A stretch of DNA of 64,000 nucleotides from Thermodesulfobacteriota bacterium (GCA_040753915.1 JBFMDN010000012.1:1-64000), one strand, 5' to 3'; shown: positions 7,688-57,541, counted from the stretch's first letter. Notes: generated from the sequence alone by a model not told the origin. A program made the numbers and translations.

Positions 7688-7866
7688 CAGGCATTTGCCA
7701 GAACTAATAGGCCTCCGCCACCACGGGGACCGCTGTGGGAGCTCTCCGTAGCGCCAGCGCCGCGATTCTCTTCTTGAACTGGCCTTGAGGTGCGGGCGGG
7801 TTTGAAGACCGCCCTGCCGAGCAGGAAAGCGGCAACGACCGCCGGCGGCACGCCTCTGTCAGAGCT

Positions 7867-8481
7867 TCAGACTGCCCCCTTTTCAAAGATGGTTGCGACC
7901 AGTGATGCTAACCGATGAACGTGGCGCCTAGTCTCTTCCGTCGTACGGCCTGGATAATTCCTGAAGGTAATCAGAATCCCGTTGAGCGCTGCAAAGAACG
8001 CGTGGGAAACCAATCTCACATTGCCTTTTACACCTGCCTGCACAAAGATCTGGTCGAACACGTCCAGGAGCCGTCTTTCCATTTCGTTGAATCTGGCAAC
8101 CGCCGACTCCTTGATAGTCCCATGGATCATGAAATGGGTCATCATCTCAAAAAATGAGCCGTGTTCAAGCAGGTACTGGACGAAGTCCCTCGCGGTCTCC
8201 TCTGCAGTGCGATCCGAGGCCTTCCTCAGAATGCTTTGCAACCGTCCTTCCATTTCCTGGCACTGGCGAGCGAATGCCTCCACAAAAAGGTCGTCACGGT
8301 CCGCGAAGTACCGGTAGATCGATGCAGGTGAAATCCCTGCCTGTCGAGCGATGTCACGCATTCCGACCTCTTTGAACGACTTGTGTCCAAAGAGGCTGAT
8401 GGCAGCATCCATAATGAGGTTCTTTCTCACCTCACGTTCATGTTCTCGGAGATTCTTTAGGGTGGAGCTCGACTTCCTCAT
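7867..8481 (-). CDS. TetR-family transcriptional regulator
   Basis: The HTH 'FGHKSFKEVGMRDIARQAGISPASIYRYF' lies near the N-terminus. The start is uncertain; the ORF is open to 8784 and an alternative ATG exists at 8646. Confidence 0.65.
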   Translation of the reverse strand: MRKSSSTLKNLREHEREVRKNLIMDAAISLFGHKSFKEVGMRDIARQAGISPASIYRYFADRDDLFVEAFARQCQEMEGRLQSILRKASDRTAEETARDFVQYLLEHGSFFEMMTHFMIHGTIKESAVARFNEMERRLLDVFDQIFVQAGVKGNVRLVSHAFFAALNGILITFRNYPGRTTEETRRHVHRLASLVATIFEKGAV

Positions 8482-9532
8482 TCGGCACCGCACACGTCGA
8501 ATCTGACCTGTCGGTCGTGGTCCCACCTTTAGGAGGGCCAGCTCCACGCTATCATGCGACACGAATGATTTCAATTCGCCCAGGGGGTCAGGCTTGTTTC
8601 TTGAGGAATCGAAGATGACGATAGTCTGTGAATAGGCCACTGGCATGCTCCAGACCGAGCAGGCGAGGTTAAGAGGCGACAGAAAGATCAAGAGAATAGG
8701 CCTGACCCCACCCTTCTCCTTTTCCTTGAGAAGAGCCACGTGACAACAAGCACAGCGCACCACACCGCCAAAGCAAGAGCGCATCCGTTCACAGCCTCTT
8801 TGAGCCCCATGAGCACCAAGTCCATCTGGAAACAGCTCCTTTCTTGCGAGCGTCCGTCGCTCCCGTGCAGAAGATTCCGTCTCCTACACGGGGGTCCGCT
8901 CGCGCGACGGACGCCTTCCCTCCATCTTGATGACCCGGGCAGGAAGGAGGGAATTTTTCTGTGATGGCCTGCGAGAGGGGGAGCATAAAGCGTGCCAGGA
9001 CAGCGCGTAAGGATGTTTCCTAATACAATTTGTTATTCCAATACGATAGATTTTGGAGACGCTTCGAGATCACGGCTGCCGGCAACGACGAAGGAACGAT
9101 ACGTGTCAAAATCCCGTTGTATGAAACTTGCATCAGTTAAATCAGAGGGTTATTTTTAGCTTTCTGCGTGAAAATCACTCGTGGTCCTCCACTACCGTGT
9201 CATCTTGACTCGCCCGCATTCTCCGGAGCGATGACTGCCACACATATTCAATGCGTGGCACTCATCGCAGTTGAAAACCAATGAGCCTTCGGTTGACATG
9301 GATTCATAACAGAGGTCGAGATTTCCCATCAGTGCCTGTGGAGCTCCTAGCTCATGGCAAACACGATAGTGGAACGCGGCCGTTGCTTACACGCTGTCGC
9401 TTCCGACTCGGTTTGCGAATCAGGTTCCGACCTGTTCTTGATGCGCTTCATCATAGATTCACAGGCAGCCCCCAGCACGCTGAGATCCTCCGCTGCGGGT
9501 ATGGCATTCGGGCGGAACGTCACCGCCCGCCC

Positions 9533-9781
9533 CTACTCATCTTCTTTATCTTGCTTATCTTCTTTTGGCCCGGATTCTTCTTCCGCGGCAGCATGGGACT
9601 TGATCTGTTCGGCGTATTGAACCACCTCCTTCAGAAGGGGCTCTATGACGAGGGTCCACTCGGGATGCTCCCTCAAGTTGAGCGAGCCTGTCTCCAGCAC
9701 CTTGGCTATGACAAACAATTTCGTTCGAACATCGTACAATTCTTTATGCACTTTCTCCGCGGTCCATTTCTTTTCCGACAT
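9533..9781 (-). CDS. Small acidic hypothetical protein (82 aa)
   Basis: GGAGG RBS 7 nt upstream of the ATG. The sequence is protein-like, with a KEDKQDKEDE tail. Confidence 0.4.
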   Translation of the reverse strand: MSEKKWTAEKVHKELYDVRTKLFVIAKVLETGSLNLREHPEWTLVIEPLLKEVVQYAEQIKSHAAAEEESGPKEDKQDKEDE

Positions 9782-10177
9782 TTCAGCCTCCATCCGGGAA
9801 ACTCTCCGACAAGAACCTTTCCCATGAACCCGACGCCTTGTCCGCCGTTGCTCATGGTCAATACATTCAGTATCACCGAACGACAGGTCAGGGCAACTCT
9901 CTTCCTTCGTCAGACGATTCGTGGTGACATGCTTGTAAATCAGGGCTGCAAATGGTACCTTTGGTTCAGCGGGACGCCCATGGGAAAACCCGAGCAGGGG
10001 GGGCGAATCGTTTGTATACGGTGCACGTGTGGCGCCAGCGACGTCGAAGGCGGTCGCCTGCAGTTCTTCAAGCAGGTCTTGTCGTCATGTCGGCGCGTGC
10101 TTGTGCAGGGGTTTAGGCGGCGTCGCGAAAGCGGGAAGCAAGAATCCAGGCTTTTCAAGGCGAGAGGGGTTGTGCCG

Positions 10178-11254
10178 ATGGGGATCTTGGACTTTGTCAG
10201 AAGCGAGCTGATCGATGTCATCGAGTGGATCGACGACAGTGGCGACACGCTGGTGTGGCGCTTTCCGGACCAGGACCACGCGATAAAGAACGGGGCGAAG
10301 CTGACGGTGCGAGAGAGTCAAGCGGCGGTTTTCGTCAATGAAGGAACTGTCGGAGACGTTTTCATGCCCGGTCTGTATACCCTCACCACTCAGAACCTTC
10401 CCATTCTGACCACTCTAAGGTCCTGGAAATACGGGTTCGACTCACCCTTCAAGGCAGAAGTCTACTTTGTAAGCACGAGAAACTTCCTTAACCTCAAGTG
10501 GGGGACCCAAAACCCGATCATGATGCGAGATTCCGATCTTGGGGTCGTTCGGTTGAGGGCGTTCGGCACGTACGGTATCAGGGTTGTGAATCCTCGCATA
10601 TTCATGAAGGAAGTAGTGGGAACCGAGGGGTCGTTCACGACAGACGAGATCGAAGGCCAATTGCGCAGCATGTTGGTCTCCGCATTCACGCACCGGTTGG
10701 CATCGGCCGGGATAGCCGCCCTGGACTTGGCCGCAAATTACCGCGTCATGGGTGACAGGGCCAGAGCAGGGATGGATGAAGAATTTCAGCGCTATGGTCT
10801 GTCGCTCACCATGTTCATCATCGAGAACATCTCTGTCCCGCCTGAGGTCGAAAAGATGCTCGATGTCAGGACCCAGATGGGGATAGCAGGAGACTTGGGC
10901 AGGTACACCCAATTCCAGACAGCTCAGGCCATTCCCGAGGCAGCACGAGCCGGCGGAGCAGGGGAATTCATGGGCATGGGAGCGGGAATTGCCATGGGCC
11001 ACCAAATGGCCAATGCCATGGCGGGGAGCTTCCGACAGCAGCAGACCACGGGCGCAGAAGCGGGGCAATCGGCTCGCACATTCCAGGCCGGGGCGGCGGA
11101 AAAGTTCTGCTCCCAGTGCGGCAAGCAAATATCGTCGGGAGCCAAGTTTTGCCAGGAGTGCGGCGCTCCTCAGCAGCAGGTGTGTCCTCAATGCGGAGCA
11201 GCCGCGGATACGCGGGCAAAGTTTTGTCAGGAGTGCGGAACAAAACTGGGATAA
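10178..11254 (+). CDS. SPFH/band-7 domain protein with C-terminal triple zinc-ribbon (COG4260-like)
   Basis: Residues about 1-250 form an SPFH-like region. The C-terminus has 'FCSQCGKQI...FCQECGAPQQQVCPQCGAAADTRAKFCQECG'. The upstream part of the long ORF (9281-10177) does not look coding. Confidence 0.65.
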   Translation: MGILDFVRSELIDVIEWIDDSGDTLVWRFPDQDHAIKNGAKLTVRESQAAVFVNEGTVGDVFMPGLYTLTTQNLPILTTLRSWKYGFDSPFKAEVYFVSTRNFLNLKWGTQNPIMMRDSDLGVVRLRAFGTYGIRVVNPRIFMKEVVGTEGSFTTDEIEGQLRSMLVSAFTHRLASAGIAALDLAANYRVMGDRARAGMDEEFQRYGLSLTMFIIENISVPPEVEKMLDVRTQMGIAGDLGRYTQFQTAQAIPEAARAGGAGEFMGMGAGIAMGHQMANAMAGSFRQQQTTGAEAGQSARTFQAGAAEKFCSQCGKQISSGAKFCQECGAPQQQVCPQCGAAADTRAKFCQECGTKLG

Positions 11255-11566
11255 GACGTATCCTCCCTCTTGAGGCCTGCAATGAACCGGAGAGCTCGGA
11301 TCAAGCGGCTCTGAAGCCCGACCTTCCCTCAAGGCCAGCTCAAAACAAGAATGCCGGCGAGACGCCGGCGCTGCGCATATTCGTGCCGAGATCCCCGTAG
11401 TAGGGTGCCAGCCCTGCCCTTACTTGAAGATGGTCGCCTTTGCTATCATTCTCAGCGTGGGGCACTGCAATGAGGTAGACAGCGTTGCCTTCATTACGAA
11501 ACGACGGTCTCGGGACAGAAGTCTGAGAGCGGACCGAGCTCACGGGAGTTGCTCGGAGGTCTCTCC

Positions 11567-11917
11567 TCATACTCCCCGAGGAATCGGCTCGATGTCGCAT
11601 TGATCTCCGAAATGCTCCAACACATCCCGCTGGAGGTTTACCAGTGCCGCCTGGTCCTCAATTTCCACGACAAGCTCGCCGTTATCGAATGTTTTCAGCC
11701 TCCCATGCTTCTCGATTACCTGAATCGCCTTCGTCGGGTCGATGGTAATCCACCCCTTCATTCTCCGGAGAAGCTCGGCACCTGAGAAGCCTCGTTCTAT
11801 CACAAGATCCACATCACGGAACTTGGCCTGCCAGCCAATGACCGCGGGCTTGACGAGCACTGGTAGCACCGGATCGTGCATGGCAGCGCACCTGAACCAG
11901 ACTTTTGCTCTGATCAT
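11567..11917 (-). CDS. Hypothetical protein
   Basis: Open frame with a protein-like segment 'VIGWQAKFRDVDLVIERGFSGAELLRRMKGWITIDP'. The start is uncertain and no family was recognised. Confidence 0.25.
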   Translation of the reverse strand: MIRAKVWFRCAAMHDPVLPVLVKPAVIGWQAKFRDVDLVIERGFSGAELLRRMKGWITIDPTKAIQVIEKHGRLKTFDNGELVVEIEDQAALVNLQRDVLEHFGDQCDIEPIPRGV

Positions 11918-13216: not shown

Positions 13217-13793
13217 ATATCCCACCACGAGCCCCCCTTACCACCGCCTTTCTCGGCCGAGTAACGGCACCTGTGATGAGTGCCGAAGCATGAGGTCCTC
13301 CCTTGCGGATATTCGAGGGTATTCTCCGGAGGCCGCTCGAGAGCGGTCACGTGATTTTACATTCTGTAAAGAATTCTGACGGTAGGGGAGAGCCTTCTCT
13401 TATCACTGAACTAAGAAAGAACTTGCGAGCTTCAGCCCCAGTAGTAGCCCGTCTTTAACTTGGCACGAGCGTTGCATTTCCGATCCCGACCTCTCTGTAC
13501 GGACCATGTCCGTCGGAAAGATCCGTGCAGAGGCAGCGATCCGCGACAAATCTCCTGAGTCTTGGCGGATCCGCCCGATAAGCCTATGCAACAAAGAGTG
13601 GCAATTGAAGATAACATTCTTGAGTCTCGAGGTCTGCAATAGCGATGAGAAGACAGCGTCGTACCGGAACGGGTAGCCGCATTTCCAGTCAGCTACATCA
13701 ACCGATATCATTGGCAAAGGATCGGGGAATCGAGACAAGAGTGCACGAAATTTATAAGGAAATTGAAATACCGGAGAAAGGAGACAAGGACGC

Positions 13794-14483
13794 ATGGAAC
13801 ACAAAGTGAGTTATGCGTTGTACGTGCTTCAGGAGCCTGTCCAATATGCAGCGCTGCTGTTCATGGCGACAATGTACACGATAAAGATCAGCCAGTTGCT
13901 CAAGAGACCGTTCCCTCCGGAAAGGGCGGAGCTCAAGGGCGATCGCGTTACGGGGTCCATCCAGTCTCTATTCAACGTGCTCCGCCCCTGGGACATGGAG
14001 AGCACAAGCAAGAACCCGTATTTCTATGCAGAGTTCATGATCTTCCACGTGGCTGTTGCCTTAACCATTGGTGCGACATTCTTCATCCCGCTCGTGCCCC
14101 AGATTATGACTCCCACATTCACGGTCATCATCATGGTGTTCATGTGTTTGGCCTTCCTCATTGGGCTGCGTCGCATCTACAGGCGGATGACAGTTCCGGA
14201 GATAAGGATAATTTCAACTCTTGACGATTATTTTGCCGTCATCTTGATGACCGCGTTTTTCGGTGTCGGTGCGGTCACCATGTGGACATGGCTCGAAGGT
14301 AAAATGGAGACATCTTGGATGTGGGCCTTTTTCCTTATGACCACATTCTTCTTGATATACGTACCGTTCAGCAAGATCTCGCACTATGTCCTCTATCCCT
14401 TCGGCAGGGTCAACTACGGAATGATTTTCGGTGGCAGAGGCATCCTCAATAAAGGGAACCAAAATATAACGTGGAAGCCCTGA
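13794..14483 (+). CDS. NarI/HdrE/DsrM-family membrane b-type cytochrome subunit
   Basis: Five hydrophobic segments and 'FSKISHYVLYP' (NarI-family xKxxHxxxxP). RBS AAGGAGA. Confidence 0.55.
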   Translation: MEHKVSYALYVLQEPVQYAALLFMATMYTIKISQLLKRPFPPERAELKGDRVTGSIQSLFNVLRPWDMESTSKNPYFYAEFMIFHVAVALTIGATFFIPLVPQIMTPTFTVIIMVFMCLAFLIGLRRIYRRMTVPEIRIISTLDDYFAVILMTAFFGVGAVTMWTWLEGKMETSWMWAFFLMTTFFLIYVPFSKISHYVLYPFGRVNYGMIFGGRGILNKGNQNITWKP

Positions 14484-14523
14484 CACAGGCTCTGGTTGAG
14501 AATTCGTGTTACGGAGGAGATCA

Positions 14524-15912
14524 ATGTCTGATTCACAAGACAAGGCCCTGGCGACGACCGTAGCTTCCACAGGCTCTGAAAAGCTGGGTGCCGCTGAGGA
14601 GCGCAAGTGGCCCCTCAAGTCGGAATTCACTCCGGAGATGCTGGCGGAAATGGAAAAGCTTCTCCCCACCAAGCTCAATCGGGTGGTCGCCACATCGCTC
14701 GCGGGGTGCATTCACTGCGGAATGTGCAGCGACGCGTGCCATTACAGTGTTTCCATTCCTGACGACAAGACCCTTGTCCCGGCATACAAGGCTGACCGCT
14801 TCAGAAAATGGTACAAATGGCGATACGACTGGATGGCTAAGATTTTTCCATCTTTTGTGGGGGCTCAACCTCTGACCAAGGAGTTGGCGGAGGAGATGTT
14901 CGACAAGCTCTTCGGCGGGTGCACCATGTGCCGCCGGTGTACGTATAACTGCCCGATGGGAGTTGACTACGGAATGATGGTTCGCTCGGCCAGAAGCATC
15001 ATGCAACAGGTCGGGAGGTGTCCGCAGAATCTGCAAGATACGGTGGACACTCATTACAATCATGGCAACAACATGGCTGTTCCTCAGGACGAGTTTATCG
15101 AGACGATCGAGTGGATCGAGGAAGAGCTTCAATCAGAAGATGGATGCGAAGACTTCACCATCCCCATTGACAAGAAAGGGGCCAAATTTTTTCTGACCCT
15201 GAATCCAAGGGAGCCGAAATACTATCCGCTCACCATCCAGGCCACAGCAAAGGTCTTGAACGCGGCGGGTGTGGACTTCACGATCTCATCTCGCTACTGG
15301 GATCTGACGAATTACGCTCTCTTTAACGGCAATGACGAGGATGCTCGCCTGTTTTCTCTGTGGCAGGCAGAAGATGTGAAACGTCTGGGCTGCGAGTACC
15401 TTTTATCCGGCGAGTGCGGTCACGGATACCGAGCTTTGCGCTGGGAGCTTCCCAACTGGCTCGGAGGGGTTCCCTTCAAGATAACGAGCGTTATGGAGTT
15501 GATGGCAAAGCTTATCGAGGATGGGGCAATTAAGCTGGACAAGTCCGTGCACGCAGGCAAGCGCTTCACGTACCACGATTCCTGCAATATCGCTCGATCG
15601 GGAGGAATACTCGAGGAGCCCAGGATTGTTATTCGAGCATGCGTCGATGACTTCGTGGAAATGGAGCATAACAGGGAAAAGAGCTACTGCTGCGGTGGAG
15701 GCGGAGGCGCCCTGGCCATGAGCGAGTTTTCCAAGCGTCGCATCGCAGCGGGCAAGATAAAGGGTGACGAGATCCGCGCTACAGGCGCCAATGTGGTCCT
15801 CCAGTCTTGCCATAACTGCACGGACCAGTTGAAGGAGATTTGCGAGCACTACGGCATCCACGCAAAAGTGATGAACCTTGCCGAGCTTGTCGCACCGGCA
15901 CTGGTGTTGTGA
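14524..15912 (+). CDS. HdrD/DsrK-like Fe-S oxidoreductase (2x[4Fe-4S] plus CCG domains)
   Basis: Two 4Fe-4S motifs are present: 'CIHCGMCSDAC' and 'CTMCRRCTYNCP'. The CCG motif is 'YCCGGGGGA'. It lies 40 bp after the NarI-like gene. RBS GGAGGAG. Confidence 0.7.
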   Translation: MSDSQDKALATTVASTGSEKLGAAEERKWPLKSEFTPEMLAEMEKLLPTKLNRVVATSLAGCIHCGMCSDACHYSVSIPDDKTLVPAYKADRFRKWYKWRYDWMAKIFPSFVGAQPLTKELAEEMFDKLFGGCTMCRRCTYNCPMGVDYGMMVRSARSIMQQVGRCPQNLQDTVDTHYNHGNNMAVPQDEFIETIEWIEEELQSEDGCEDFTIPIDKKGAKFFLTLNPREPKYYPLTIQATAKVLNAAGVDFTISSRYWDLTNYALFNGNDEDARLFSLWQAEDVKRLGCEYLLSGECGHGYRALRWELPNWLGGVPFKITSVMELMAKLIEDGAIKLDKSVHAGKRFTYHDSCNIARSGGILEEPRIVIRACVDDFVEMEHNREKSYCCGGGGGALAMSEFSKRRIAAGKIKGDEIRATGANVVLQSCHNCTDQLKEICEHYGIHAKVMNLAELVAPALVL

Positions 15913-20392: not shown

Positions 20393-20913
20393 CTTGGAGA
20401 GCCTTCACGATTGAGGTACCGCAATTCATCCGCGATGAATATCCGGCCGGGGACATCAATTGGATCGATTGGCGAGAAATTTTCCCGCAGGTACACGCTA
20501 CTCCCCAATGGACGCATGCGAGCATGATTTGTGCCAAAGTCTCTTACCCGACGGCATACAACCGTCCTCGAGCACAAGCCCACATGTCGGAACCCTCCAG
20601 GCAGGACAGTGCATGGCAATCTCCTGAATTTAGCTCACAATTTCTTGTGGAAGAATCCGGACAGTTCTTATGTGAGGTGACCCCCTGCCCCGTCAACCCG
20701 ATTTTCAGCCGCGGAAGATCCGGGCTTCCTGCAGTCATCGCTGGAGGCTAAACTCCGAATAGTGGCTCAATTTCAGTCACATGGCGGACTCTACGGGCAG
20801 GTGGACGGTCCGCCCTATCTGGCTCATTTGACTTCGTGTAAAGAATGCTGACACCCCGTCAGAGAGAGCCACGTTGGACCCGTGCTCTTTGGAAACGGCA
20901 CAGGTACTGTGAA

Positions 20914-23538
20914 TCACCCGTAAAAGTATATGCCAATGGCTTTGATCAGGATCACTGACAATGTCACGACAACTGCAGCGTGCGAGACAAAGCCGATCAT
21001 TACTTTCCGCGGCGAATCACTGCTGTTGCGGCTGAGACGGTAAATGACCATCAAGCTGAGAACCAGACCTGCAAGGATCACTATCACTTGCGCAGCGTGG
21101 GTGATCGATGGCGAGATCTCTATGGCAACGGCTCGAAAGATCTCGAAGCCGAAGGTTTGCCAGGCCAGCTTCGGCAACTGGGTACCGAGGTGCACCAGAT
21201 AGTACGAATGGAACGCAAGGTACGCAGCTAGGGTGAGAGGAAGGAGCGCCAGACCGAAGCGCGCAAAATTGTCTCGAAAGCCGTCCCCGAAAACGCGGCG
21301 CGAGACCAACGATGCCGCGGCTGTTCCCCCATTGACGCCGAGCACGAGCAGTAGGAAGGTAACGGTAATTCGAGCCGTTTCTCCTAGCGGAAGGTGCGAG
21401 CTCACGTCCGCGTACCACGCCATTCTGACCATCATTTCGCTGAGGAGGCCACCGATCAGCCCGAGGACCAGAAAAGCCGTGCCCGCTCTGGGATTGCGAA
21501 TCTCCCAGATTTCACGGCCGGGCATCCTCAGATTAAGCGTGATGGCATCGTGCGGACAGTTCTTGATGCATTGTGCACATAGGTTGCACCAGCGGTTGCT
21601 ATGGAGTCTGGGACCGGCGTTCCCGAAGGGGCAGCCGTCGTCGGAGTCGGTTCCTACGTAGCACTCGTTCGTCGAACACTGAGAGATACACACATTGCGA
21701 TTTGCCCGCAATTCAATGAGCGAGGTCTTGGCAAGAATGCCGATCATCCCGCCAAGTCCGCAAAGATGCTGGCACCACGACTTGCGCTCGTACACTATTG
21801 CCACGAGTATTGCGGAGGCGAGCATGGCCAAAAGGAGCAGCCCCAGAATAACCGGCGAGCTTCGTATGTCCGTCACGGTCTCGAACCAGATAATAAAGAG
21901 AACCGCTCCTGCCACCACAAAATCACTGTGGAGCTTAAAGAAATCGGGAAACGGTTTACCGAGGTTCACCACGCGTTTTGCCAAATTGCTCATCGTCCCT
22001 ATGGGACAAATCGCGCACCAGGACCGTGCGCCGAGAAATGCTCCGAACATCAGCAAAGGCCACCCCAGGGCCCAACTTATCAGGGAGGCCGGGTTCTTCA
22101 AGGGGTCCGACGGGCCGAAGAACAGTACGGCCAACATAATGACGAAGAAGGGAGCAACAGCACTTTGGAGAATGGCGGGGAACAAAGGGCTTCGAACAGC
22201 CTGCTGCACGGGCTTGAATTGGAGCAGATTGAGCTTACCTTTTCCTTCAAACTTCTTGAGGTCAAATGAGATGTCTTCCGGCCGTAGCACGCCTCCGTGG
22301 GATACGAGGATGGCACGCTTCAGGGTAGTGGCCAGCTCCATGTCATTTCCCGGCCAACGGTAGTTCACAAGGATTTTCAAGGTTTCTTTGGGTAGCTCGG
22401 CCACCGGACGTCGCAGCTCCTGGCAATATTTGGACAGGTAATGGGTGACAAGGCCGGGGATTTCCCTGCGTCTTGTTCTCAGGGGGGGAATGGTGATTGC
22501 CCAATCCAGAAAGGAGTACAGCAAGGGGTGGTCCTCAACCGTAATCTCGGAGGCTTCCAATCGAGTCGTAGCGATGACGCGAACTTTCCCCTTCCTTGAG
22601 CGTACTCCTCCTGACCGACGAAACGTCCCTGTGACAAGAGCTTCGAGAAGCTTCAATTGCATTACGCGAGTAAGCTTGTCCACACCGCGAATCAGCAGGG
22701 TACCGCCTTCCGTCAGATCGAAGTATCCGGGTGACTCCTTCACCCCTCCATCGGGAGCCTGCTCTTCGGCTCCGAAAAAGAGCTCAACCTGCTTTCGAGT
22801 ACGACTCTCCTCGTCCACAGGGATTCCCTCCGGGGATACTCCATCGTTACCACCTATATCCACTCTGAGAAGATCGACCTGGAGGAACACCTCCTTGCCG
22901 TGATGGCTCATTCCGTAGAGGGAATGTGCGATCCCTTCTTTTCCCACACCGGGCTCCCCGATAATCAACACCGGGCAGTCCGAGGTAGCCAATTCCTCGA
23001 CGCGAGCGGTGACCCGCTTTCGGATGTAATCCCCCATGAAGAAGTCCGGGAACACGTGCTCTTGTCGACTTATCATGTCCTGGAGGGCTCGGCGCTTCAT
23101 CTTCGTCTCGAAGATGGTCTGATGCAAACGGATTATCTTGCGCCCGAGACTCGTTACCAACGGAATCGTGAATTCCGGCCCCTGCCTAAGAAGATTCTCG
23201 AAATCCGCGGGGGCTATCTCGATGACCGTGCAAGGTTCCTCTGCCACTACCAGCGAGCTCGAAGGCCATGGACCGCCTATGAAGAAGCTCACCTCAGCGA
23301 AAATGTCCCCCGACCTCAATTCATCGACGATCATTTTCTCGTCGCCTTCGCATAAAACTAGGCTAGCCCTCCCCGAGACGATATAGGTAACGTGATCTCC
23401 CCTGTTACCCGGCCCAACGATGTAATCACCGGTGTGGTACTCTCGAGGAACGACTTTGTCCCTCAGGATCTCTCGGATTGGCTCAGGGAATCGGTCGAGA
23501 GATCTGCCAATGGTCCCGGTGGGGGACAGCTTCCACAT
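20914..23538 (-). CDS. cNMP-binding plus sigma54-activator-like AAA (degenerate) fused to NapH/NosR-type polyferredoxin membrane domain
   Basis: One continuous ORF. Walker A is 'GEPGVGKE'. The NtrC-type 'ELFGHEKGAFTGA' is replaced by 'ELFFGAEEQAPDG', and 'GGTLFLDEI' by 'GGTLLIRGV'. 'NYRWPGNDMEL' is retained. About 450 aa of TM helices follow, with 'SWCAICPIGT' and 'CISQCSTNEC...CNLCAQCIKNCPHD'. Confidence 0.7.
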   Translation of the reverse strand: MWKLSPTGTIGRSLDRFPEPIREILRDKVVPREYHTGDYIVGPGNRGDHVTYIVSGRASLVLCEGDEKMIVDELRSGDIFAEVSFFIGGPWPSSSLVVAEEPCTVIEIAPADFENLLRQGPEFTIPLVTSLGRKIIRLHQTIFETKMKRRALQDMISRQEHVFPDFFMGDYIRKRVTARVEELATSDCPVLIIGEPGVGKEGIAHSLYGMSHHGKEVFLQVDLLRVDIGGNDGVSPEGIPVDEESRTRKQVELFFGAEEQAPDGGVKESPGYFDLTEGGTLLIRGVDKLTRVMQLKLLEALVTGTFRRSGGVRSRKGKVRVIATTRLEASEITVEDHPLLYSFLDWAITIPPLRTRRREIPGLVTHYLSKYCQELRRPVAELPKETLKILVNYRWPGNDMELATTLKRAILVSHGGVLRPEDISFDLKKFEGKGKLNLLQFKPVQQAVRSPLFPAILQSAVAPFFVIMLAVLFFGPSDPLKNPASLISWALGWPLLMFGAFLGARSWCAICPIGTMSNLAKRVVNLGKPFPDFFKLHSDFVVAGAVLFIIWFETVTDIRSSPVILGLLLLAMLASAILVAIVYERKSWCQHLCGLGGMIGILAKTSLIELRANRNVCISQCSTNECYVGTDSDDGCPFGNAGPRLHSNRWCNLCAQCIKNCPHDAITLNLRMPGREIWEIRNPRAGTAFLVLGLIGGLLSEMMVRMAWYADVSSHLPLGETARITVTFLLLVLGVNGGTAAASLVSRRVFGDGFRDNFARFGLALLPLTLAAYLAFHSYYLVHLGTQLPKLAWQTFGFEIFRAVAIEISPSITHAAQVIVILAGLVLSLMVIYRLSRNSSDSPRKVMIGFVSHAAVVVTLSVILIKAIGIYFYG

Positions 23539-23977
23539 GACCGACATCCTCCCTTCTTTTCCCGCACGGGAGCGTAACGCTCTCTCAAGACTTTTACAGG
23601 AATAATTGGTGGTCGGCAATATGATGGGCCTGCCATTTCTCCAGTTCAGCGCGGCGCTCTCAGTCTATGGCTGCGCAACTTGCAGGTGCAAGCCGGAGAC
23701 AATTCTTTGAAGCTCTTTCACGATTGTGCGTCTCCCCCCTCGATGAACCCTGATCTGACCGTCCCGCAAGGCCAATCCGCGAGCAGCCACCGTAGTATAG
23801 GGAGGAAGAATGGTCGACTGTTTCAACCGTGCAGCGAGACTTTGAGCGGAACGTCTACCCGGAGGACGAATGGTTACGCGTGGTTTCGCATTTCCGTTGA
23901 CCCGTGCGACCGCCCACTGTAGAATTGGTTAGTCTACGCTCTCTTTTGATTCTAATTGACGCATTACGTGGGGGGCC

Positions 23978-55996: not shown

Positions 55997-57541
55997 ATGG
56001 AGATCGGCGCTGATCGGGTCCTGCGAGACCTGACGGACCACCTTCTCAGTCCGCTCTGCAATCTCGATCGAGCCCTGGAGCCGATCCTGGACCTATTGGA
56101 CCTGTTGGCGTCCGCGGAGCGCGCGGTGGTTTCGTTAAAGAACACCCATACGGAGCGACACATAGTCTGGACTTCGCGGAAGCGAGCTGATGAGGGCATT
56201 CCAAGCTCGAAAGCGTCGGAATACGATCTTCCCCCGGAGATGCTCCGGTCCGCCGAGCTCGTTTCGGCCACCGACGCGACTGAAGAGCAATTGCCGCAGA
56301 GTGAGAACCGGGAGATGTCGACCCCTGAGGCAACAAAGTCGTTTGTGGAGGTTCCCATTGTGCTGCGGGGAACGCCCGTGGGCGCTATGCGAGTCTATTT
56401 TCCCCACGAGAAACGAGAGGTGGTCATGGATCGCGTGAGCCTCATCGAGAAGATAGCCCAACTCGTGGCCCAGACGCTCGATCTCAGGCAGCGGATCACC
56501 CTGTGGCACGAGGCTCATATCGCGGCAAATACCGCTCTCAAGGCTGAGATGCTAGAGCGAGTAGCCCATTTTCTTTCCCATCGCGAGACGAGTCCCATGG
56601 GCCCCATCCTTAGACTAGTTCGAGACGCTGCCGAGTCTGTAGCACCGATCTTGATCCAAGGGGAAGCGGGGGTTGGGAAGACTCTCGCCGCTCACGCGAT
56701 TCACGAGTTGAGCGACAGAAGAGCGCTTCCATTAGTAAGGATAAACTGCCTCGTGCACCGACACGATCCGTTGCGTATCCTCGATGGATTGCGAAGCGGG
56801 ACATGGGCCTCAGAACGGATCGGGAGCCCCGGCGAGCGGACCTGCCGGTGGACGCTCTTGCTCAGCTCCGTGGAAGCGGTGTCACTCTCGGCCCAGGCGG
56901 AGATCCTCTCGTTCCTCAGACGATCCATGGAAATGCACGACTATCCCAGGGGGGCTGCCTGCAGAATCGTTGCAACATCTCGGAAGGACCTAGCAGGAGA
57001 GGTAAGGAAAGGCGCTTTCAGTCCTGAGCTGTATAAACGCATTTCCACCATTCTGATCGAGATTCCGCCTCTTCGGGACCGTCGAGAAGACGTCTTGCGA
57101 CTCACCCAGTTCTTTTCTACACGGGTGAGCAAGGAATCGGGTCACAACCTCACGTTCACGCCACGATCGCTGGAGCTCCTGAACCGTCATATCTGGCCCG
57201 GCAACGTCACGGAGCTGGAAAATCTTGTTGAGCGCATGGGATTCTCCGGCGAGGATCGCGAGATCGACGTGGACGATCTGTCTCCCTTCCTTTCTCCGGC
57301 CTTGGCTCCTTTAGACGCCGTGGACAACGGCTCTCTGGATTCGCTGCAACGTCTCGAGAAACGGAGTGTTTTGAGCGCGTTGGAAAGAAACAAGTGGATC
57401 CAAGCTCGGGCTGCACAAGATCTGGGCATAACAATGCGACAGATGGGGTATCGGATCAAGAAGTACGACCTCGAAGGTCTCGTCAAGAAAAATCGAGGTC
57501 ATCGAAGAAGAGAAAGGCAGGCCGGTAGCCCCCTCGCATGA
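55997..57541 (+). CDS. GAF plus sigma54-activator-like AAA (degenerate GAFTGA/Walker B) plus Fis-type HTH regulator
   Basis: Strong RBS AAAGGAGG. Walker A is 'GEAGVGKT'. The GAFTGA position reads 'RSGTWAS' and the Walker B position reads 'WTLLLSSVE' (DE replaced by SS). 'IWPGNVTELEN' and the C-terminal HTH 'IQARAAQDLGITMRQM' are present. Confidence 0.75.
   Translation: MEIGADRVLRDLTDHLLSPLCNLDRALEPILDLLDLLASAERAVVSLKNTHTERHIVWTSRKRADEGIPSSKASEYDLPPEMLRSAELVSATDATEEQLPQSENREMSTPEATKSFVEVPIVLRGTPVGAMRVYFPHEKREVVMDRVSLIEKIAQLVAQTLDLRQRITLWHEAHIAANTALKAEMLERVAHFLSHRETSPMGPILRLVRDAAESVAPILIQGEAGVGKTLAAHAIHELSDRRALPLVRINCLVHRHDPLRILDGLRSGTWASERIGSPGERTCRWTLLLSSVEAVSLSAQAEILSFLRRSMEMHDYPRGAACRIVATSRKDLAGEVRKGAFSPELYKRISTILIEIPPLRDRREDVLRLTQFFSTRVSKESGHNLTFTPRSLELLNRHIWPGNVTELENLVERMGFSGEDREIDVDDLSPFLSPALAPLDAVDNGSLDSLQRLEKRSVLSALERNKWIQARAAQDLGITMRQMGYRIKKYDLEGLVKKNRGHRRRERQAGSPLA

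Follow-up and report, generated by a model that had tools for sequence, protein, structure and literature searches.

A CRP-like sensor fold and a degenerate enhancer-binding-protein AAA+ core fused to a NapH-like membrane iron-sulfur module in a Thermodesulfobacteriota genome

The analysis of a 64,000-nucleotide stretch of DNA from a Thermodesulfobacteriota bacterium (GCA_040753915.1, JBFMDN010000012.1:1-64000; hereafter the window) revealed a gene whose product is a single intact polypeptide, composed of a CRP-like sensor fold, an AAA+ core derived from bacterial enhancer-binding proteins (bEBPs) and a NapH-like module with nine transmembrane (TM) helices. The reading that we favour, with a probability of roughly 0.45, is that the protein is a signal-gated membrane iron-sulfur electron-transfer protein and not a transcription factor. 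The open reading frame (ORF; 20914..23619, minus strand) runs without interruption over 901 codons, and neither a stop nor a frameshift separates the AAA+ and membrane parts. Pfam matched cNMP_binding (residues 59-146, 2e-15), Sigma54_activat, split over residues 202-238 and 281-358 (8.7e-20), AAA_lid_14 (residues 381-457, 2e-15) and two copies of Fer4_5 (2e-8), together with a weak Fer4 match at residues 677-694. The fusion of a cyclic nucleotide monophosphate (cNMP)-binding domain, a sigma54-activator core and a polyferredoxin, which the initial annotation had claimed, was thereby confirmed within one ORF, and the Pfam hidden Markov model (HMM) assigned the middle region to the Sigma54_activat family, as proposed. 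The motifs quoted in that annotation were recovered as well (GEPGVGKE, 221-228; FFGAEEQAPDG, 281-291; GGTLLIRGV, 305-313; NYRWPGNDMEL, 419-429; SWCAICPIG, 533-541). The absence of a Fis-type helix-turn-helix (HTH) domain was borne out: Pfam returned no HTH_8 match in the ORF, and residues 460-480 run directly into TM1. The true start is probably the ATG of M28 at 23538, which would give an 874-residue product, since homologues are approximately 876 residues long, the 96% identical protein P0001 begins with MWKLSP, and an AGGGAGG Shine-Dalgarno sequence lies 9 nucleotides upstream of M28.

Residue-level comparison of the AAA+ core relied on the phmmer alignment to NtrC1 of Aquifex (3m0e/1ny5/1ny6; E 2e-32). 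The domain belongs to the bEBP clade and not to MoxR, and the bEBP-defining L1 and pre-sensor-I insertions were retained at the lengths found in NtrC1. The Walker A motif reads GESGVGKE in NtrC1 and GEPGVGKE here. At the L1 tip, QAPDGG stands opposite GAFTGA; at Walker B, LLIRGV stands opposite LFLDEI; in the arginine-finger (R-finger) segment, FREDLYYRL is answered by a gap followed by HPLLYSFL; and in sensor II, GNDMEL is found for GNVREL. An insertion of approximately 20 residues, of which residues 254-267 had predicted local distance difference test (pLDDT) values below 50, occupies the place of the NtrC1 segment NCAAIPExLLESELFG. When 23 family members were aligned, GAFTGA was missing in 23/23, the position of the Glu-switch Asn was taken by an invariant D249, and F282, G283, G298 and Y299 of the L1 region were invariant. 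The invariant or conserved nature of the replacement residues in this alignment indicates that the changes were fixed and selected and do not reflect decay. The substitutions at GAFTGA and Walker B that had been noted initially were thus upheld by the NtrC1 alignment, are conserved family-wide and are no peculiarity of one sequence. That the protein has given up ATPase-driven sigma54 activation, as was suggested at the outset, is the natural reading of a core that has other residues at Walker B, at the Glu-switch Asn, in the R-finger region, at the sensor II Arg and at the GAFTGA tip, and that nonetheless is kept under purifying selection. As judged from the alignments, the core keeps only the P-loop, the elements for hydrolysis and sigma54 contact being lost. 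Matches to the NCBIfam equivalogs of bEBPs (NifA, DhaR, NtrC, PspF and others) reached 60-115 bits against cut-offs of 440-1000, every score lying 4- to 10-fold under its cut-off.

The closest structural reference points for this core are the Aquifex aeolicus bEBPs NtrC1 and NtrC4 (PDB 1NY5, 1NY6, 3M0E, 3DZD). They share with it the bEBP-clade AAA+ fold, the L1 and pre-sensor-I insertion lengths, the Walker A GExGxGKE, PPLRxRxxDI and WPGN motifs, and an N-terminal sensor carried on a long helix. Unlike them, the protein described here lacks GAFTGA, the Walker B DE pair, the R-finger arginines, the sensor II Arg and the HTH, has acquired the insertion of approximately 20 residues after the beta2 strand, and ends in a 9-TM iron-sulfur membrane module instead of a DNA-binding domain. 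Derivatives of bEBPs without GAFTGA are known, among them TyrR, NtrX and VpsR. These also use a bEBP-derived AAA+ core without the sigma54-contact motif for ligand binding or oligomerisation, but they are soluble transcription factors that keep the HTH and mostly Walker B, whereas here the hydrolysis apparatus is gone.

The N-terminal domain adopts the beta-roll fold of cyclic-nucleotide-binding domains and, as in the effector domains of the CRP/FNR family (CRP, Vfr, CooA, CprK), is followed by a long helix. It differs from these in that the AAA+ core, rather than an HTH, comes next, and in that PWPSx replaces the phosphate-binding Arg-Ser/Thr-Ala. Aligned to Vfr and CRP, the phosphate-binding cassette retained the Glu, while R-S-A had become S-S-S; the clade consensus is FGEISFFTGxPWPSD, with a Ser opposite the Arg of Vfr and CRP. 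More distant superfamily members carry the canonical cassette FGEMALLTGEPRSASV. Because the phosphate-binding Arg has been lost from the cassette of this clade, its binding of cAMP or cGMP is doubtful. The cNMP domain put forward in the initial annotation therefore stands as a fold, and the accompanying idea of cNMP sensing is weakened.

The C-terminal half is polytopic, as had been anticipated; hydropathy and two AlphaFold2 (AF2) models agreed on nine TM helices. Besides TM1-4 and a conserved segment next to the membrane, the NapH-like part has two membrane-proximal Cys motifs and a ferredoxin-like loop. WCxxCPxG comes after TM1-2 and WCxxLCxLG after TM3-4; a 104-residue loop with 10 Cys (Cx3Cx4C...CP and CxxCxxCxxxCP) then leads into five further TM helices. 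AF2 confidence was low in the iron-sulfur loop, as expected without cofactors. C535 and C538 were invariant in the clade, in 50/50 fusions and in 35/35 stand-alone modules, C616 and C620 were invariant in 85/85 superfamily members checked, and all eight Cys of the [4Fe-4S] motifs were invariant or nearly so across the superfamily. Taken together, the 12 Cys of the module were invariant in 50/50 fusions and in 32-35/35 stand-alone modules. If the N-terminal 480 residues are cytoplasmic, nine TM helices would leave the C-terminus outside, and the Cys motifs and the 104-residue loop would face the cytoplasm. A bis-His heme in the extra TM bundle was considered as a family feature and ruled out, as the position of H804 is most commonly Gln or Asn across the superfamily.

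The best family match of the membrane half was NapH/MauN, the quinol dehydrogenase ferredoxin subunit (TIGR02163, PRK09477), with NCBIfam E-values of 8.5e-10 for NapH and 1.3e-9 for NapH/MauN; NosR was matched only at E 1.3e-3 and over the iron-sulfur part alone. The NapH/MauN-like character that had been assigned to this half was therefore supported at E ~1e-9, though far under the family cut-offs. In NapH/MauN, too, four TM helices come with a pair of membrane-proximal Cys motifs, and two [4Fe-4S] motifs, probably cytoplasmic, lie further on. TM1-4 are present here and both membrane-proximal motifs are invariant, but these read CX2CP and CX3C(G/P), where the reference has CX3CP twice (PMC5928378); five C-terminal TM helices and ~470 fused cytoplasmic residues have been added, and the napA/napG context is missing: no nap or mau genes that could supply a NapG/NapA partner were found in the window neighbourhood or in nine other family loci. 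NosR/NirI and RdhC/PceC, membrane iron-sulfur flavoproteins of N2O, nitrite and organohalide respiration, share the module of four TM helices and two Cys motifs, and NosR also has two [4Fe-4S] motifs (PMC5928378, PMC8238504). This module is thought to carry electrons between quinol and extracytoplasmic enzymes, and NosR and RdhC were first taken for regulators and only later seen as electron-transfer proteins (PMC5928378, PMC8238504). Missing here is their extracytoplasmic flavin mononucleotide (FMN)-binding domain, which has a flavinylated Thr: Pfam gave no FMN_bind match. Genes of the nos, nir and rdh groups were not found nearby. The C-terminal immunoglobulin (Ig)-like FixG_C domain of CcoG/FixG/RdxA was not found by Pfam either, the five-TM bundle occupying its place.

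The architecture proved to be widespread. A word-indexed search yielded ~92 full-length clusters with the same Pfam architecture at 44-96% identity, whose named sources were mostly Desulfomonile, Desulfomonilaceae, Syntrophaceae and Thermodesulfobacteriota metagenome-assembled genomes; across the superfamily, Chloroflexota, Omnitrophota and Nitrospirota are named as sources too. When the membrane half was used as the query of an exhaustive phmmer search, it returned 1,456 representatives (clustered at 50% identity), 287 of them at E <=1e-30. The best 150 of the 1,456 were classified with HMMs built from the family alignment: 76 combined sensor, AAA+ and membrane parts, 24 combined AAA+ and membrane parts, 48 consisted of the membrane module alone, and two were cNMP-membrane fragments or partial. 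The N-terminal inputs varied (cNMP, cNMP+GAF, HisKA+REC, AIM24+cNMP). Neither GAFTGA nor the Walker B DE was present in any of the 46 superfamily members with a full AAA+ alignment, and distant members showed L1 remnants such as GAFSFA or GALPFA, a Walker B of the form hhhhEN and a spoiled P-loop (GEPGTEK and similar). A scan of a genome collection with generic back-translated patterns recovered mostly ordinary bEBPs and five true family loci, with the Gemmatimonadota locus L072 as a by-product. In databases the proteins carry automatic names from NCBI and JGI, 'sigma 54-interacting transcriptional regulator' and 'AAA-type ATPase domain/polyferredoxin'. The initial annotation held the architecture to be undescribed; this holds for the literature searched, in which no paper describing the fusion was found, but not for sequence databases, where it is common under these names. 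The component families are already known; absent from the literature searched were the fusion itself and a membrane-integral protein whose hydrolysis apparatus has been lost completely throughout a superfamily.

Purifying selection acts on the gene. Compared with the 96%-identical ortholog at locus L085, the ratio of nonsynonymous to synonymous substitution rates (dN/dS) was 0.107 over the whole gene. By part it was 0.118 (AAA+ core), 0.079 (sensor) and 0.039 (NapH-like part), and no domain reached 0.32. Since every domain is under such selection, the dead AAA+ core is likely still functional.

Under the favoured reading, a bEBP ancestor would have exchanged its DNA-binding domain for a NapH-like membrane module, the motor being disabled afterwards. 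The module would be the output and, in the manner of NapH, NosR, PceC and CcoG, would relay electrons, with the quinone pool or cytoplasmic donors on one side and extracytoplasmic acceptors on the other; the N-terminal sensor and dead AAA+ core would form a regulatory cassette inherited from the ancestor. In true bEBPs the N-terminal domain controls oligomerisation of the AAA+ core. Here the cassette would probably act through oligomerisation under the control of a ligand, as in NtrC1/NtrC4. Assembly of the pseudo-ATPase would dictate the conformation or oligomeric state of the membrane modules tethered to it and thereby switch electron flow, and the re-purposed L1 hairpin might dock on the cytoplasmic iron-sulfur domain. 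As the cNMP cassette is degenerate in this clade, its ligand is probably a nucleotide (ATP/ADP or another) that would be held at the intact P-loop without hydrolysis; other clades show the reverse, an intact cNMP site and a degenerate P-loop. That the membrane module is the output is suggested by N-terminal domains that are swapped like bEBP inputs, by the enzyme-like contexts of stand-alone modules and by a C-terminus that would reach the periplasm. The superfamily members P0234, P0269 and P0142 have CxxCH cytochrome c domains after the last TM helix, and P0234 is surrounded by genes for SoxA/TsdA-type cytochromes, DsrE and a cNMP-rhodanese protein (L089 3754-10099). At L072 (3874-6764), a homologue lies between a cupredoxin-like ORF and an ORF with CuA-like and cytochrome c domains, and P0280 is followed by a small cytochrome c with a signal peptide. 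Other arrangements were also seen: P0287 is co-oriented with two receiver genes that it directly abuts, and at L072 a canonical NtrC-type bEBP is encoded on the opposite strand.

Several results weigh against this reading. Ten family loci (the window, L001, L002, L004-L009 and L085) were compared all-vs-all by BLAST; no neighbour was shared among them, only the gene itself recurring, and no conserved redox partner or operon for the clade emerged across the ten. The membrane half scored 37.9 bits against the TIGR02163 cut-off of 213 and 38.2 bits against the PRK09477 cut-off of 234. No solved structural relative of the membrane module was found, and neither a quinone nor a heme site was identifiable in it. 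The His residues conserved in the extra TM bundle, H804 and H880, are invariant within this clade only. Finally, it is from domain logic that we infer signalling to run from the sensor to the redox module.

A tentative generalisation, possible but on balance doubtful, is that these proteins form a widespread class of gated electron conduits. A bEBP ancestor would have swapped its DNA-binding domain for a NapH-like iron-sulfur module, the AAA+ core would serve as a non-hydrolysing, nucleotide-operated clutch, and each lineage would keep just one site for a small molecule, be it the P-loop or the cNMP cassette; second messengers or adenylate charge could in this way switch respiratory or extracytoplasmic electron flow without transcription. 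Both domains could be aligned in 41 representatives (P0121-P0269), and none of these combined a canonical P-loop with an intact phosphate-binding Arg in the cNMP cassette: 14 had the Arg only, 15 the P-loop only and 12 neither. The pattern also counts in favour of the electron-transfer reading, but it is uncorrected for phylogeny, and two or three clades may be all that it reflects. The clade of the window gene is the P-loop-only group, and the distant fusion P0156 has an intact cNMP cassette.

If the electron-transfer reading is true, hundreds of database entries named 'sigma-54-interacting transcriptional regulator' are not transcription factors, and reconstructions of sigma54 regulons over-count activators in Thermodesulfobacteriota, Chloroflexota, Nitrospirota and other phyla. 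The family would be a clear example from nature of how a bEBP AAA+ motor can turn into a pseudo-enzyme that regulates a membrane redox module, a new use of the scaffold, and would couple nucleotide signalling directly, at the post-translational level, to the electron transport of anaerobes. A built-in cytoplasmic switch would also offer a handle on the function and control of the poorly understood and structurally unsolved NapH/NosR/RdhC/CcoG module.

Of the competing explanations, the one that survives best, though we judge it unlikely, makes the protein a redox sensor and anti-activator: the polyferredoxin would sense the redox state of the quinone pool or cytoplasm, and the membrane-tethered, dead AAA+ core would sequester sigma54 or poison bEBP rings. 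Mixed rings are conceivable, with bEBP insertions of unchanged length and the PPLRxRRxEI and WPGNxxEL motifs retained; a perfect TGGCAC-N5-TTGC site (13461-13475) suggests that the organism uses sigma54, another bEBP derivative is encoded at 55997-57541, and NosR, NirI and RdhC were historically tied to regulation (PMC5928378). However, the sigma54-contacting GAFTGA tip is gone clade-wide, neither a bEBP nor an rpoN gene was a conserved neighbour in the family loci compared, and the swapped N-terminal inputs would leave the protein with an 'input' at either end, the first of them not clearly needed. Stand-alone modules, moreover, pair with cytochromes, which is enzyme-like rather than sensor-like. 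The role of anti-activator or scaffold floated in the initial annotation found no positive evidence, and both the sensor swapping and the cytochrome-linked stand-alone modules point to a redox output.

A maturation factor for a cofactor or metal, similar to CcoG, which is a cupric reductase, or to MauN/NapH, is less probable still. Such a protein would serve an extracytoplasmic enzyme by reducing or delivering a metal or cofactor, and the AAA+ core would be a remnant of a MoxR/NorQ-like chaperone or a regulator. The relationship of the membrane half to NapH/MauN, with the weaker NosR match, and the position of the stand-alone L072 homologue between cupredoxin-like and CuA/cytochrome c ORFs are consistent with this, but Pfam found neither a FixG_C/Ig-like nor an FMN-binding domain, and copper, nos or cco genes were not found nearby in any family locus compared. 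The AAA+ core is, furthermore, of the bEBP clade and not of MoxR, and without hydrolysis residues it cannot be a chaperone motor. That the protein is a membrane-anchored sigma54-dependent activator, as the database label says, is very improbable: Sigma54_activat and AAA_lid_14 were above the Pfam threshold and the NCBI and JGI names agree, but the protein has kept neither GAFTGA nor the Walker B DE, its Glu-switch Asn, sensor II Arg and R-finger segment have likewise been replaced, no HTH is present, and the bEBP equivalog scores are too low. Least credible of all is an artefact or pseudogene, be it a frameshift, an assembly join of bEBP and napH-like genes or a decaying fusion. Some members are annotated as two adjacent genes (MBW1748228 and MBW1748227) and L009 appears split, but the frame is uninterrupted, ~92 independent clusters share the same length and architecture alongside many distant ones, and dN/dS is 0.11 overall with a conserved linker and juxtamembrane segment.

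Table 1. Positions, in window coordinates, of the features of the fusion gene and of the flanking kinase genes.
Feature	Position	Strand	Basis or remark
Whole ORF, 901 residues from TTG start	20914..23619	-	stop codon 20914-20916
CRP/FNR-type cyclic-nucleotide-binding fold (residues 59-146)	23182..23445	-	Pfam cNMP_binding
Degenerate phosphate-binding cassette (107-126, FAEVSFFIGGPWPSSSLVVA)	23242..23301	-	Vfr alignment; CRP and 76 superfamily members; Glu kept, P-S-S for the R-S/T-A triad
Long helix (148-183), sensor fold to AAA+ core	23071..23178	-	
bEBP-clade AAA+ core and lid, catalytically degenerate (186-460)	22240..23064	-	
Walker A / P-loop GEPGVGKE (221-228)	22936..22959	-	G221, E222, G224, V225, G226, K227, E228 invariant in clade
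Insertion relative to NtrC1 (253-276), between beta2 strand and ELFG helix	22792..22863	-	NtrC1 alignment
L1-loop region (280-300, LFFGAEEQAPDGGVKESPGYF)	22720..22782	-	length same as NtrC1; QAPDGG (287-292) for GAFTGA
Walker B position GGTLLIRGV (305-313)	22681..22707	-	R311-G312 for DE; R311 conserved in at least 90%
Former R-finger segment VEDHPLLYSFL (361-371)	22507..22539	-	FREDLYYRL replaced; H364, P365, L366 invariant
Sensor II motif WPGNDMEL (422-429)	22333..22356	-	Met for the Arg of GNVREL; position variable across family
NapH-like membrane Fe-S module (470-712)	21484..22212	-	Pfam Fer4_5 x2; NCBIfam; hydropathy
First Cys motif WCAICPIG (534-541; CX2CP), right after TM2	21997..22020	-	
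Second Cys motif WCQHLCGLG (615-623; CX3C-G/P), right after TM4	21751..21777	-	
Two [4Fe-4S]-type motifs (644-689)	21553..21690	-	C644x3C648x4C653...C663P; C678x2C681x2C684x3C688P
Extra C-terminal bundle, five TM helices (713-895)	20935..21483	-	hydropathy; AF2 pLDDT mostly 84-95
Upstream PAS-HisKA kinase, 417 residues	23978-25231	+	
Downstream HAMP-PAS histidine kinase, 750 residues	18140-20392	-	

In the window, the gene is flanked by a divergent PAS kinase of 417 residues and, past a 520-bp gap, by a HAMP-PAS kinase of 750 residues on the same strand. The initial description of a gene between two PAS kinase genes is accordingly correct for the window, but the arrangement is not conserved. 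At L085 (6860-8001 compared), which is otherwise syntenic, there is no upstream kinase and truB directly precedes the gene; judging from the two loci, the kinase was inserted or deleted recently. Not being conserved among the ten loci, the neighbouring kinases were discarded as a hint at function. The 750-residue kinase has two PAS domains, each with a Cx10CxxC motif (RPCYQGFKGKNAKCDHCQ, KYCYKIYKGRETKCDNCP) that could be a metal- or redox-sensing site.

Two distant fusions offered further context. Upstream of P0156, at a distance of 48 nucleotides, lies a gene for a hydrolase of the metallo-beta-lactamase (MBL) fold (L087 6165-6953) with a weak match to the anti-Pycsar protein Apyc1, a cyclic-nucleotide phosphodiesterase; the hydrolase could be a dedicated signal-degrading partner of P0156. 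P0156 and P0201 directly precede genes for homologous hydrophobic membrane proteins of 120-131 residues (L087 9609-10004 and L091 5182-5544; 44% identity, E 3e-27), of which no counterpart was found in the 520-bp gap downstream of the window gene. A molybdoenzyme encoded beside P0156 was considered as a Nap-like periplasmic partner; it had no twin-arginine signal, and the idea was unsupported. At L007, a partial paralog (7707-8984) stands directly upstream of the full-length family gene (9161-11800), and in the P0150 cluster the annotation assigns the AAA+ half and the membrane half to two adjacent genes, MBW1748228 and MBW1748227. Both cases could be natural splits or frameshifts.

A scan for promoters and terminators gave nothing above the shuffled expectation. 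The perfect sigma54 consensus TGGCACGAGCGTTGC, on the plus strand, is located ~320 nucleotides upstream of ORFs 13794-14483 and 14506-15912, and the L085 ortholog of the latter has Fer4/CCG (HdrD-like) domains. A sigma54-promoter-like site with one mismatch, TGGCACAAATCATGC, was found at 20522-20536 on the minus strand, ~130 nucleotides upstream of the start of the HAMP-PAS kinase; ten such one-mismatch sites occur in the window against 4.4 expected, which is weak evidence. The second degenerate bEBP derivative of the window (plus strand, 514 residues) has no GAFTGA, and its Walker B, WTLLLSSVE, is without DE; its Walker A reads GEAGVGKT, its sensor II reads WPGNVTEL, and it ends in a C-terminal Fis-type HTH.

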